From Clostridia bacterium (GTDB lineage: Bacteria; Bacillota; Clostridia; RUG12999), in assembly GCA_045633565.1 (NCBI GenBank), contig JAZQYO010000007.1:8724-72723 (forward strand): a DNA stretch of 64,000 bases. Reading direction: 5' to 3'. Below, piece by piece: positions 12,711 through 17,382 of the stretch (positions are counted from its first letter, which is position 1; every line of letters begins with the position of its first letter). The translations under genes were made by a program, and so were the position numbers. Below the pieces are notes generated by a model that was given only the letters and a program-made list of their open reading frames with translations, did no database searches and was not told where the DNA came from.

Positions 12711-13262
12711 TCAGTATTTCCTTATAATGTGATAGCCAACCGCATGAAATTTTATTGTATTAAGTCTTTCGGTAACGTCCGGTCGGAAATTGAACTCGTT
12801 TATAACATTCCAAAAATCAACATAAGGCGCTATCTGCGGGATTATAAATTCAAGATAGTTTTCCCACGCTTTTAAATTTTCAATCTTTTTAAACGCACCT
12901 ATTTTCTCAAACCAACTCGGGTGAGTTGCATGAACAACTGTGCAGAAAACCTTAATCCCCTTTTCTTTAAGGCCCGAAAAAAATTCAACATAATGGTCGG
13001 CAGCCTCCTGGCTGAAAGCGCCCTGCTCAGGCTCAACTCTGCACCATTCAACAGATGTGCGGAAGGCCTGATGTCCAAGTCCTGCGCATAAATTTATATC
13101 CTCACGAAACATTTCATAGCTGTTGCAGGCAAGTCCCGCCATTTCCTCGTTCCAGAACCAGTTGTTTTTATTGTTGCCCTCCACCTGGTGTCCGGCATAG
13201 CCGCTATCCCATAAAAACCCTTCCGGGAAAGAGTAATCTTTTAAAGAAAAAACATCATACAT
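12711..13262 (-). pseudogene. glycoside hydrolase family 1 (beta-glucosidase-like) N-terminal fragment, likely a gene remnant
   Basis: 183 aa with hallmark GH1 N-terminal motifs (FPEGFLWDSGYAGHQVEG, RTSVEWCRVEP, acid/base-region VINEF). The nucleophile half (..ENG..) is absent. Only about 50 nt separate its stop from the rnhB terminator, so no continuation is possible. Confidence 0.6.
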
Positions 13263-15404: not shown

Positions 15405-15653
15405 ATGGCTGACAGAGAAAGAATGGACAGACCTCACGCAAGACGTACAAAGAAAAAAGTTTGTGCTTTCTGCGCTGACAAGGTTGAATCTATCGATTAT
15501 AAAGATGTTGCAAAGCTCCGCAAATATGTTTCTGAAAGAGGCAAGATTCTTCCCAGAAGAATCACAGGCTGCTGCGCAAAACATCAGCGTCAGGTAACTA
15601 CCGCAATTAAAAGAGCAAGAATGATTGCACTCCTGCCCTTCTCGGTAGACTAA
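15405..15653 (+). CDS. rpsR: 30S ribosomal protein S18
   Basis: [37 protein letters not shown] matches the S18 family. ATG 15405 has better AGGAGG spacing than the ATG at 15399. Confidence 0.95.
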
Positions 15654-15666
15654 TTAAAAATTTAAA

Positions 15667-15963
15667 GCCACCCTTCGGCGGTTAGTCTTAGGGAGGAATC
15701 GGTTTCCGAACCACATTTTTAGTTTATACTACATCAAAAAGCACCATAATACGTCAGTATTATGGTGCTTTTAATCTTTATATAATTCTAAAAATCTGCT
15801 TTCGGAAACTGCCGGTGCATCACAAAAAACATTATTTTTTGTGCAGAGCAAGGAAAAACTGTGCGGAAATCCTGTCGGATTCTAAACGGTTTTGACGCCG
15901 CTATGTGCTAAAATAATGTTTTTTGGACGAATAATCCCTAAAACTAACCGCCGCTTGGGTGGC
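15667..15963 (+). repeat. inverted-repeat-bounded ~300-bp non-coding element (MITE-like or long structured RNA) directly after rpsR
   Basis: GCCACCCTTCGGCGGTTAG (15667-15685) is the near-perfect reverse complement (15 of 19 bp) of CTAACCGCCGCTTGGGTGGC (15944-15963), which is followed by T6. Nested inner inverted repeats: CGGTTTCCGAA at ~15701 pairs with TTCGGAAACTGCCG at ~15802, and a perfect hairpin GCACCATAATA-cgtcag-TATTATGGTGC sits at 15741-15768. Confidence 0.45.
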
Positions 15964-15972
15964 TTTTTTGTT

Positions 15973-16260
15973 TTAATTGATATTAATAATTATTTTATCT
16001 TCTGCTGTCGCTAAGAATTTTTCTTCTTCATAATCACAGAAATTGCAAATAACCGCATTATATTCTTCCATTTTAGGTTCTGTAATATAAAACACTTTGG
16101 CGCCTTGCTTTTCTACCGCCTTTTCACACATTTTTTCAAAACTGCTTGTTCCCCTGCTGTGAAATTCTTTAACTCCCCAATTTATCAATAGCCTTACTTT
16201 GTTAAAAATAATTTCCTCCGCATCAAACCCTATCTCATCCCCAACAATATAACATTTCAT
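15973..16260 (-). pseudogene. truncated DUF1273 / YpsA-like SLOG-family fragment
   Basis: 96-105 aa. CYIVGDEIG..GVKEFHSRGTSSFEKMCEKAV..KQGAKVFYI parallels VCFTGRR..GAVHFISGMALGVDMWAAEAI..EKGLDITLE of the full-length DUF1273 gene at 49176-49664. It covers only the N-terminal two-thirds of that gene. Confidence 0.4.
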
Positions 16261-16351
16261 AAAAAACACCTCACTTTCTATATTACACATATACCATATA
16301 ACACTTTTGTTGAATTGTCAATATGTAATATAGCAAATATACTATATACGG

Positions 16352-16573
16352 GTGATGATTTTGAATTACAATATTAAAGTTGTTTTGGATGAGATGTTGC
16401 TTTCGCGCGGAAAAAGTAGATATTGGTTATCAAAAGAAACCGGCATACATTATAAAACCATAGACAGCTATTATAAAAACAAAATTAAACGATACGAAGC
16501 CGATTCCATTTTAAAAATCTGTCTCGCTTTAGATTGCGAAGTTGGCGACATTATTAAAATTGTAAAATGCTAA
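16352..16573 (+). CDS. small XRE-family (Cro/C1-type) HTH DNA-binding protein
   Basis: 73 aa with HTH segment (WLSKETGIHYKTIDSYYKN). Overlaps the next HTH gene by 7 nt. Confidence 0.55.
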   Translation: MMILNYNIKVVLDEMLLSRGKSRYWLSKETGIHYKTIDSYYKNKIKRYEADSILKICLALDCEVGDIIKIVKC

Positions 16574-16821
16574 ATAAAAAAATCTTAATTTCAGAGACCT
16601 TTAGTCAGAATTTAAAAAGAATAAGAAAAAATTCCGGTCTTACGCAGGAGCAAACAGTTGCCAGACTTCAGCTTATGGGGTCTCCCATCAGCAGAAGCAC
16701 CTATTCTCTTATTGAAATGGGTAGAGGTAATATATTTGTAAGCGATTTAGTAGGACTTCAACAAATATTTAATGTTGATTTCAAAGAGTTCTTTGAAGAC
16801 ATTTCTGTAATGAGAGATTAA
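16567..16821 (+). CDS. small XRE-family HTH DNA-binding protein
   Basis: 84 aa with LKRIRKNSGLTQEQTVARLQLMG.. helix-turn-helix. Confidence 0.55.
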   Translation: MLNKKILISETFSQNLKRIRKNSGLTQEQTVARLQLMGSPISRSTYSLIEMGRGNIFVSDLVGLQQIFNVDFKEFFEDISVMRD

Positions 16822-16855
16822 ATTTAGAAAGTTATCTTGAACAGGAAATAAAATA

Positions 16856-17362
16856 ATGGATTTACCGAAACGAAAACGGACGAGATTAAAAGAATATGAT
16901 TATTCAACGCCCGGCGCATATTTTATTACGATATGCGTAAAAGACAAAAAACATTTGTTAGGCAAAATTGTAGGGTGCGGCGATTTCGACGCACCGAAGA
17001 TTATGTTGTCCGGATACGGTCAAATCATTAACAAACACATCAACCTGATGAATGAAAAATATTCACACATTAGTGTAGATAAATATGTAATTATGCCAAA
17101 TCATATTCATTTAATTATTAATGTAAAGGATTATAAAAACGGTGCGTCGGAAACCGCCGCACCCTACAATAACGAAATCTCCAAATTTGTATCACTGTTC
17201 AAAAGATTTTGTAACAAGGAATTTGGTGAAAATATATTCCAGCGGTCATATCACGACCATATTATACGTGGTGAAAAGGATTACAAAAAAATCTGGGAAT
17301 ATGTTGATACGAATGTGCAGAGATGGGAAATGGATTGCTTTTATAATAATGAAAGGTCGTAG
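16856..17362 (+). CDS. IS200/IS605-family Y1 (HUH) transposase-like protein, RAYT / TnpA_REP-like
   Basis: 168 aa with HUH motif (MPNHIHLII), catalytic Tyr motif (QRSYHDHIIR) and N-terminal YDYS..GAYFIT. Typical Y1_Tnp size. No typical IS200 terminal hairpins or tnpB are present. Instead it follows two HTH genes. Confidence 0.8.
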   Translation: MDLPKRKRTRLKEYDYSTPGAYFITICVKDKKHLLGKIVGCGDFDAPKIMLSGYGQIINKHINLMNEKYSHISVDKYVIMPNHIHLIINVKDYKNGASETAAPYNNEISKFVSLFKRFCNKEFGENIFQRSYHDHIIRGEKDYKKIWEYVDTNVQRWEMDCFYNNERS

Positions 17363-17382
17363 CCTTTGCTACGACCTTTTTT
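17355..17382 (+). terminator. terminator (GGTCGTAGC-cttt-GCTACGACC plus T6)
   Basis: Hairpin overlapping the transposase stop, followed by TTTTTT. Confidence 0.7.

Follow-up and report, generated by a model that had tools for sequence, protein, structure and literature searches.

A compact group of four small genes in a 64-kb stretch of Clostridia bacterium DNA (contig JAZQYO010000007.1; this whole stretch is called the window below) raises the question what kind of Y1/HUH enzyme its last gene encodes and on which DNA that enzyme acts. The gene is the third of an operon, behind two genes for helix-turn-helix (HTH) proteins, HTH1 and HTH2. An earlier note on the locus had taken its product for an IS200-type Y1 transposase, possibly one domesticated as a REP-associated tyrosine transposase (RAYT; REP, repetitive extragenic palindrome). 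In this study, we show that the gene holds two inverted, GTAG-footed hairpins of the REP type within its reading frame, that this arrangement is conserved across a family of homologues, that the hairpins covary with helix αC of the protein and that the genes are mosaic. We put at about 0.7 the probability that HTH1-HTH2-Y1 is a regulated operon for a RAYT-type enzyme whose gene carries two inverted copies of the enzyme's own predicted substrate, in a block that is exchanged between genes.

RAYTs, REPtrons and GTAG REPs are already well described, and nearly all that is known of RAYT biology comes from Proteobacteria. The Clostridia family to which this gene belongs is very large (>6,000 clusters at 90% identity) and many of its members come from gut metagenomes. 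Annotations commonly list such genes as 'transposase' or 'hypothetical', and assembly and gene calling may be affected by the G+C-rich palindromes inside them. The arrangement bears on how RAYTs and populations of REPs or REPINs (inverted REP doublets) keep matching each other in the long term: the reading frame of the enzyme itself contains the cognate hairpins, adjacent to the part that encodes their predicted reader helix. It is also a testable handle on specificity, as a joint swap of αC and hairpin should switch binding, and block exchange offers a mechanism by which new enzyme-REP pairs could arise. The features that carry the argument are:

16856-17362, plus strand: Y1/HUH gene of the TnpAREP (RAYT) type, 168 aa, intact
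16970-16995, plus strand: intragenic REP site 1, GTAG foot and hairpin
17141-17167, minus strand: intragenic REP site 2, GTAG foot and hairpin
16967-17235, plus strand: central block of the Y1 gene (REP1, αA, β2, β3 with HUH, REP2, αC), codons 38 to about 127

The 168-aa protein is closest to TnpAREP

The HUH motif had been recognised correctly in the earlier note and is H83-I-H85 in NHIHLII (17102-17110). The catalytic tyrosine had been sought in SYHDHIIR, and here the assignment has to be changed. A HMMER alignment to PDB entry 4er8, E. coli TnpAREP bound to a REP, places H59/H61 on H83/H85 and the catalytic Y115/N119 on Y149/N153 in WEYVDTN; Y149 (17300-17302) lies 17 residues downstream of the tyrosine picked before. 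The SYHDHIIR segment is aligned with the strand that contacts GTAG. The residues with which the E. coli protein makes these contacts, W94, Q95, E100, H101 and R104 (numbering as in PMC6006769), correspond to F128, Q129, D134, H135 and R138, the last three lying in this segment. No substitution occurs among 32 homologues at H83, H85, Q129, H135, R138, Y149 or N153. Most of these homologues have W at position 128, where the window protein has F, and N153 is followed by P in roughly a third and by V in the window protein and the family consensus. The protein ends 19 residues after Y149, with no C-terminal extension.

Y---N(P) is the class-2 (TnpAREP) signature and Y----Q the class-1 (IS200) signature (PMC6006769). 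By sequence, 4er8 is the sole solved structure found (E 0.03). It is also the top Foldseek match (4er8_A, E 5.4e-7, template modelling score 0.58) of an AlphaFold model with a mean predicted local distance difference test score (pLDDT) of 74; IS608 and ISDra2 TnpA rank after it. The best NCBIfam model is REP_Tyr_transpos (54.8 bits, cut-off 80). A check against the Pfam profile Y1_Tnp (PF01797), which had been proposed earlier, does give a match, albeit a weak one of 19.7 bits against a cut-off of 23. Scores below the curated cut-offs mark the family as a divergent branch.

The protein is thus no IS200-type transposase but a class-2 enzyme closest to E. coli TnpAREP. One option of the earlier note, a RAYT-type protein rather than an active IS200, agrees with the best structure match, the Y---N motif and the single copy in the window. 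No second Y1 copy and, as stated before, no tnpB was found in the 64-kb window, and the end hairpins and identical copies of an ordinary IS200 are likewise absent there. Homologues of the protein fall into 6,166 clusters at 90% identity; among those listed, most clusters comprise one contig.

Sister strains (L081-L083) differ from the window by 12 single-nucleotide polymorphisms (SNPs) over 2.1 kb. Those in the Y1 gene are five synonymous changes and one nonsense change, TGG to TAG at W147 (window 17295 G>A; codon 17294-17296; about 6439-6441 in L081). The latter leaves a 146-aa protein that ends just ahead of the catalytic Y149, and a public protein from a metagenome-assembled genome (P0001, annotated 'transposase') is this truncated form. 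This pattern points to a gene under purifying selection yet dispensable in part of the population.

Two inverted hairpins lie inside the gene

No REP or IS200-like hairpins flank the Y1 gene in the window, as had been noted, but GTAG hairpins lie within the open reading frame (ORF) itself. A repeat scan finds arms at 16967-16987 and 17150-17170 that are complementary at 20 of 21 positions. Site 1 reads GTAGGGTGCGGCGATTTCGACGCACC on the top strand at 16970-16995, with a GTAG foot and a 9-bp stem that contains a G.A mismatch; site 2 reads GTAGGGTGCGGCGGTTTCCGACGCACC on the bottom strand at 17141-17167. The two sites bracket the HUH motif and are inverted to each other. The pattern GGTGCG-N8-14-CGCACC occurs twice in 64 kb, at these sites, versus 0.01 expected. 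REPs recognised by TnpAREP are characterised by a 5' GTAG foot, a G+C-rich stem and an internal mismatch (PMC3479197).

Folded as single-stranded DNA, site 1 reaches -9.6 kcal/mol and site 2 -11.4 kcal/mol (z -4.3 each), and at both sites the GTAG strand is more stable than its complement. The whole 219-nt region folds as single-stranded DNA into one long hairpin of -45.6 kcal/mol (z -7.3). In the protein model site 1 encodes V39-P47 (VGCGDFDAP), the tip of a β-hairpin between β1 and αA, and site 2 encodes G96-Y104 (GASETAAPY), the β3/αC loop directly after the HUH motif, with pLDDT below 50 at residues 96-102. Rfam, searched at the gathering threshold and in E-value mode, holds no RNA family for the module; the sole matches of the REP pair are meaningless plant microRNA precursors, hit because of the long hairpin. 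An inversion switch was considered and rejected: the reverse complement of the inter-REP segment contains stops, and no inverted variant occurs among the sister strains.

The hairpin pair is conserved across the family

Eighty homologous loci (L001-L080) were compared, the best tblastn matches in one species-level genome collection and mostly contigs of metagenome-assembled genomes. They show 40-77% identity and come from Oscillospiraceae, Acutalibacteraceae, Ruminococcus, other Clostridia and one member of the Synergistaceae. Both GTAG hairpins are found at the same positions and with the same polarity in 69 of the 80 genes. In most genes the best intragenic inverted repeat lies at the same two places, with arms of 25-32 nt that are usually almost identical. 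Its score has a median of 22 (18 in the window) and is at least 15 in 65/80 genes; codon-shuffled controls never score above 14 (0/400 reach 15).

The hairpin sequence varies between genes while the arms match within each gene, as in GTAGGGGACGGCGTCCTCGACGTCCC, GTAGGGCAGGGGCTTGCTCCTGCC, GTAGGGGAGGGTCTCTGTGCCCTCCC and GTAGGGGCGATTCACGAATCGCCC. The 59 distinct 26-nt versions show double-sided changes at six of the nine stem pairs, 106 in total versus 21.7 in shuffles (0/500 shuffles as high). Compensatory changes in the site-1 stem occur within the window's own clade (L001, L002, L005). Residues 41 and 46, encoded by site 1, occur in pairs such as C/A, G/T, D/V, F/E and Y/V, and their codons are compatible with reverse complementarity in 113 of 114 homologues, versus a shuffled mean of 72.8. 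Stem position 11-20 is usually a G.A mismatch. E. coli TnpAREP needs the hairpin bulge for binding (PMC3479197), and the conserved mismatch of the family parallels this bulge.

Site 1 is always read Val-Gly (GTA GGG). Site 2 is read in three frames, ending in ...APY (6 genes), ...SPT (57) or ...PPLQ (12), so that its peptide is a passenger of the DNA. Taken together, these comparisons indicate that the hairpin pair is a family trait, apparently under selection at the DNA level.

A third internal hairpin is present in L024, L037, L039, L041, L053 (6001-6564) and L071; in L053 it consists of the site-1 REP duplicated in tandem and in frame (VGTGVLDCPQTVGTGVLDCPQ).

Hairpin class follows the centre of the protein

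Protein identity was divided into an outer partition (residues 4-37 and 127-160) and an inner one (48-92 and 107-124), with the REP-encoded loops left out. REP-stem distance is correlated with inner identity (Mantel r = -0.585, p < 0.0005); for outer identity r is -0.08 (p = 0.14). The stem class is the same in 36/37 pairs with an inner identity ≥ 0.70 and in 24/80 pairs with an outer identity ≥ 0.75. The correlation of inner with outer identity across gene pairs is r = 0.17, versus a mean of 0.605 and a minimum of 0.40 when the same columns are split in two at random. By 10-residue segments, the correlation with REP class is about 0 at residues 1-35, at 131-168 and in the HUH strand, about -0.3 at 46-70, and peaks at -0.48 to -0.59 at residues 106-130. 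This peak is not REP-encoded and covers helix αC with the loop behind it. The αC helix of E. coli TnpAREP lies in the minor groove of the REP stem, and the mismatch is read by K82 (PMC3479197). Several pairs of genes combine an outer four-fold-site identity of 0.7-0.8 with an amino acid identity of 0.42-0.48 in the centre, and their REP classes differ.

One case is found at the very locus of the window. L090 and L092 agree with the window in gene order and have the identical S18 protein. L090 is about 90% identical to the window at the nucleotide level through HTH2, Y1 codons 1-37, Y1 from about codon 127 and the HAD gene, versus about 50% across 16967 to approximately 17235. The L090 block has no site-1 REP and carries a different site-2 REP, GTAGGGAAGGGATTTATCCCTTCC. 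This swap at the same locus means that block exchange does happen. The covariation data are compatible both with coevolution of αC and hairpin and with recombination of the whole block.

In both L090 (1420-1911) and L092 (1557-1934) the Y1 centre is replaced, the site-2 REP is partly duplicated (PEGINPQPEGINPFPT) and a stop follows codon 155.

Extragenic REPs

A Y1 gene could be called at 79 loci. Their flanks (789 kb) contain 73 GTAGG-hairpins outside any Y1 homologue, at 30 loci, and 22 of these 73 are within 2 mismatches of the internal REP of the local gene. Many are no more than 250 nt from the gene, on both sides in L025 and L040 and beside it in L048, L049 and L052. With these matching flanking REPs, part of the family combines the internal pair with a layout of the classical REPtron kind. 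Neighbouring extragenic hairpins are oriented foot-outward in 32 cases, foot-inward in 15 and in tandem in 46. A REPIN-like polarity was considered on this basis and dropped: a 2:1 excess of foot-outward pairs among many tandem ones is too weak to claim REPINs.

In a metagenome scan for the stem class of the window, the window's loop variants lie, among the matches listed, only inside Y1 genes, and the commonest of these matches is a related dispersed REP of other gut organisms, GTAGGGTGCGGCGACTCGACGCACC (80/137), with close variants (L094-L213). Among the same listed matches, GTAGGGTGCGGCGACTCGACGCACC REPs occur outside Y1 genes on human-gut contigs of about 52% G+C, often alongside other GTAGGG hairpin classes such as GTAGGGACAGCCCTTGCGGCTGTCC.

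The operon and its putative regulators

The remaining features of the module are:

15973-16290, minus strand: small divergent gene from the ORF list; longest ORF 105 aa, 95-aa form starting at 16260
16275-16336, both strands: divergent promoter region with an imperfect palindrome, from the inverted-repeat scan
16352-16573, plus strand: HTH1, XRE/Cro-type regulator, PF13443 HTH_26
16567-16821, plus strand: HTH2, XRE-type regulator, 84 aa, HTH_31/HTH_3
17351-17380, both strands: bidirectional intrinsic terminator common to the operon and the convergent HAD hydrolase gene

All four ORFs lie where they had been placed before, and the 7-nt overlap of HTH1 and HTH2 is real. HTH1 matches HTH_26 at 8.3e-15 and has 73 aa from a GTG or 72 aa from an ATG at 16355. 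HTH2 matches HTH_31/HTH_3 at about 1e-6 and, weakly, models of restriction-modification 'control proteins'. The number of HTH genes at this locus varies. The window has two, and L090 has a single one, to which HTH2 is about 90% identical at the nucleotide level; HTH1 is missing at the same locus in L090 and L092 and present in L091. Homologues of HTH2 stand directly upstream of Y1 in L002, L006 and L021.

Between the divergent genes lies the imperfect palindrome at 16275-16336, with 29-nt arms. A sigma-70-like promoter pair is found in it, with hexamers on the plus strand (16315-16343) and on the minus strand (16321-16293), and the palindrome could serve the HTH proteins as operator. At about 15 of 79 loci a small gene for an XRE-HTH (HTH_26 or HTH_3) or a CopG-type ribbon-helix-helix (RHH) protein stands immediately upstream of Y1 on the same strand, at a distance of -4 to +33 nt. 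These loci are mostly the closest relatives; distant members adjoin unrelated housekeeping genes. A dedicated regulator is thus a recurrent, not a universal, partner. The 'dedicated HTH control' of the earlier note is plausible in view of these loci, with regulation itself as the conjectural part: the upstream HTH proteins probably repress the divergent promoter.

Proposed mechanism

We propose that a class-2 HUH/Y1 enzyme of the RAYT type acts on single-stranded DNA and that the GTAG-footed REPs at the β1/αA tip and in the β3/αC loop are translated as passenger peptides. On single-stranded DNA the protein may bind its internal hairpins and possibly cleave beside them; strand β4 would then read the GTAG foot and αC the stem, in the manner of E. 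coli TnpAREP. The hairpins and the αC-containing centre are inherited as one block, a recognition module together with its cognate sites, and this block has been swapped between family members. Where the genomes of relatives carry dispersed REPs, the internal pair belongs to the same REP class.

A more far-reaching version is offered as tentative, and we doubt it more than we believe it: codons 38-127 (REP1, HUH core, REP2, αC) could form a portable 'lock-and-key cassette' that is exchanged as a unit between RAYT genes, perhaps with the enzyme itself as catalyst, through cuts at the GTAG sites within its gene. If so, new REP specificities would spread by replacing the centre of a resident gene.

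Alternative explanations

The hairpins could be neutral REP insertions in two permissive surface loops, with no role, as Quentin et al. (2018) interpreted subclass 2.4. The REP peptides do lie in low-confidence loops, with pLDDT below 50 at 96-102, their sequence and frame vary freely, 11/80 genes and L090 do without one or both sites, L053 carries an in-frame REP duplication, and the literature treats such insertions as tolerated. However, position and polarity are the same in 69/80 genes down to 40% identity, and repeated independent landing at identical sites is improbable. A single ancestral insertion followed by drift would not leave arms that stay matched within genes. Compensatory changes in the site-1 stem even occur in the window's REP-poor clade (L001, L002, L005), and the hairpin class covaries with αC. 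We therefore consider neutral insertion unlikely.

Alternatively, the hairpins could act in the mRNA, as local stems or as a long-range helix of about 30 bp, and limit a potentially harmful nuclease by throttling translation or offering an RNase III site. The single long hairpin of the 219-nt region (z -7.3) and the G+C-rich stems within an A+T-rich gene would suit this, and TnpAREP is known to be strongly down-regulated and auto-inhibited. However, the GTAG foot is kept on opposite strands, so that site 2 appears in the mRNA as ...CCCUAC at the 3' end. Among non-Watson-Crick pairs on the GTAG strand, G.T outnumbers A.C by 9 to 1; six of these G.T pairs, versus no A.C, are at site 2 on the non-mRNA strand and would be A.C mismatches in RNA. 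This excess favours a DNA hairpin over an mRNA structure. Moreover, at each site the complement folds less stably than the GTAG strand, and identical hairpins are found outside genes in both orientations. A role in mRNA is accordingly given low odds.

About equally improbable is that the module is a toxin-antitoxin-like or defence cassette in which the small HTH or RHH protein neutralises or represses a toxic Y1 nuclease. An interchangeable XRE-HTH or CopG-RHH gene does stand immediately upstream (-4 to +33 nt) in about 15 loci, with tight or overlapping gene spacing; sister strains carry nonsense alleles, and the composition looks foreign. On the other hand, about 64/79 loci have unrelated housekeeping genes upstream, PADLOC reports nothing but a weak control-protein HTH match, no toxin-antitoxin family scores above threshold, and no toxicity is needed to account for the conserved REP biology.

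A leftover IS200/IS605 transposase gene of an insertion sequence, whether ordinary or decayed, to which the weak PF01797 match, the next-best fold matches to IS608 and ISDra2 TnpA and the low G+C might point, is highly improbable for a protein with class-2 Y---N instead of class-1 Y----Q and TnpAREP as closest structure, whose gene is single-copy in the window without tnpB or same-strand left and right end hairpins and has hairpins with a REP-type GTAG foot, and whose listed relatives sit mostly on one contig per cluster at non-syntenic chromosomal sites.

Several observations weigh against the interpretation that we prefer, a RAYT-type gene carrying copies of its enzyme's substrate. The window has no extragenic REP copies, the internal pair being the only ones in its 64 kb. 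The 11 of 80 genes that lack one or both hairpins, and L090 with site 1 missing, mean that the pair is not indispensable. The W147 stop of the sister strains makes the Y1 gene itself dispensable in this species. The protein deviates from its family and from E. coli in F128 for W and has V154 where Y---NP proteins frequently have P, and its NCBIfam and Pfam scores lie below cut-off. The family was sampled as best tblastn matches from a single collection, mostly of metagenomic contigs, and the pairing filter by which its hairpins were selected inflates the share of paired positions in the stem analysis. The correlation between αC and REP could partly reflect linkage instead of specificity, since αC directly follows site 2. 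Finally, binding, cleavage, regulation and any benefit of sites inside the gene are what we infer from sequence comparison.

Comparison with known systems

The nearest known system is E. coli TnpAREP with its REPtron (RAYT group 2, subclass 2.2; PDB 4er8; Messing 2012, Ton-Hoang 2012). Both proteins have the Y1/HUH fold, a tyrosine with N at +4 and conserved GTAG-contact equivalents. Both are associated with substrate-like hairpins with a 5' GTAG foot and an internal mismatch, αC is the presumed hairpin reader, and both genes are single-copy, here within the 64-kb window. The two differ in host, the window protein being from Clostridia and sharing only 18% identity. In E. coli, REPs and bacterial interspersed mosaic elements flank the ORF, whereas the window has its pair inside the ORF and none flanking it. 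Furthermore, the window protein lacks the C-terminal extension after the Tyr helix, and its gene follows dedicated HTH genes in one operon.

In-frame REPs within RAYT genes have already been reported, for subclass 2.4 TnpAREP (RAYT group 4), where they vary in number, length and sequence and are probably neutral (Quentin et al. 2018, PMC6006769). As here, they lie inside the tnpAREP ORF, between HUH and Y as site 2 does, the GTAG REPs have a stem starting in G-C pairs, there is no post-core extension and an N-terminal motif is conserved. A fixed inverted pair on either side of HUH, matched arms, covariation with αC and a recombining block do not form part of that description. The REP table of PMC6006769 contains none of the present Clostridia REP sequences. 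The Clostridia family may, by the features described, belong to or near subclass 2.4. REPs inside assorted genes had been noted earlier by Di Nocera (2013). When the literature was searched for the REP sequences themselves and for REPs within RAYT genes, these two papers alone came up. In the literature searched, we found no fixed inverted pair bracketing HUH, matched covarying arms, three-frame reading, coupling of hairpin class to αC, mosaic history of inner and outer parts or these Clostridia REPs.

REPINs (Bertels and Rainey 2011) likewise consist of two inverted REPs able to form one long hairpin, and relatives of the window carry extragenic inverted doublets of the same hairpins. In the present case, however, the spacer is about 145 nt of coding sequence including the HUH motif, no dispersed copies of the unit were seen, and extragenic neighbours are of mixed polarity. 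With the TnpA of IS200/IS605 elements (IS608, ISDra2) the protein shares the HUH/Y1 fold and the recognition of imperfect single-stranded hairpins with a 5' guide tetranucleotide, the latter as predicted here. Further traits of that group, namely multiple copies, same-strand end hairpins outside the gene, Y----Q, an obligate dimer and tnpB, are not seen.

The locus and its neighbours

On its left the module is preceded by spoIIP (minus strand) and then rpsF-ssb-rpsR (plus strand); on its right follow genes for a HAD hydrolase, hydF and hydG, all on the minus strand. G+C is 0.30-0.36 across approximately 15650-17380 versus 0.43-0.50 in the flanks. Y1-family genes are below their own flanks in G+C at 76/77 loci (median -6.8 points), and low G+C is therefore a family property and no mark of an 'island' specific to this module. 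The lower G+C holds despite the two G+C-rich hairpins within each gene (L001-L080).

The module may, as a second option of the earlier note had it, be the remnant of a small mobile island. With its divergent gene, HTH and Y1 it sits downstream of rpsR in several lineages. Genomes with an identical S18 protein were looked up and no empty site was found; those that are module-free have another gene order and are uninformative on insertion.

The divergent gene had been called a truncated DUF1273/SLOG gene, and neither part of this description is borne out. No SLOG or DUF1273 signal was detected: SLOG identity was rejected after Pfam, NCBIfam, PHROGs, PDB-sequence, deep hidden Markov model and fold searches, and no Pfam, NCBIfam, PHROG or PDB-sequence match of any kind was obtained. 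Nor is the gene truncated. Its longest ORF has 105 aa, the 95-aa form, which starts at 16260, is the one seen in homologues and chosen by gene callers, and homologues are nearly all 75-140 aa long. A search of 5.8 billion proteins returned only 4 close homologues (64-77% identity) and about 10 remote ones. Two longer remote homologues align only via short repeated stretches, and the seven remote homologues scanned contain no Pfam domain. The AlphaFold2 model is poor (pLDDT 52), and its fold search gave nothing below E 0.06. The gene is found at the same locus in L090, L091 and L092. A conserved partnership of this 95-aa ORF with Y1 was rejected, as tblastn gave no match in the 80 family loci and the association is local to the lineage. 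It is a lineage-restricted orphan.

The inverted-repeat element that the earlier note had placed next to the module, at 15667-15963, is real by the inverted-repeat scan. It occupies 15674-15955 (about 282 bp, with 26-nt terminal inverted repeats) inside the terminator hairpin of rpsR, in the loop (AAAGCCACCC|insert|GGGTGGCTTTTTT), and relatives with an identical S18 protein have a plain rpsR terminator hairpin with no insert. The L090/L092 lineage, which is without HTH1, is also without this element. It folds at -137 kcal/mol (z -13.6) and contains a perfect 16-bp terminator-like stem. No Rfam family matches it, and no further copies were found in the window, in the fetched loci (except the same locus of the sister strains) or in viral contigs. 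It looks like an insertion resembling a miniature inverted-repeat transposable element.

In the stem of the terminator at 17351-17380, GTAG and CTAC face each other (GGTCGTAGC-CTTT-GCTACGACC). This resembles a 'double-foot' REP with nothing between the feet and may be coincidence. At the terminator position L090 has another hairpin (GCCACCC...GGGTGGC), whose stem equals that of the rpsR terminator. Further away, a 183-aa ORF at 12711-13262 on the minus strand matches Glyco_hydro_1; it may be a gene remnant, 183 aa being presumably much below the usual length of Glyco_hydro_1.

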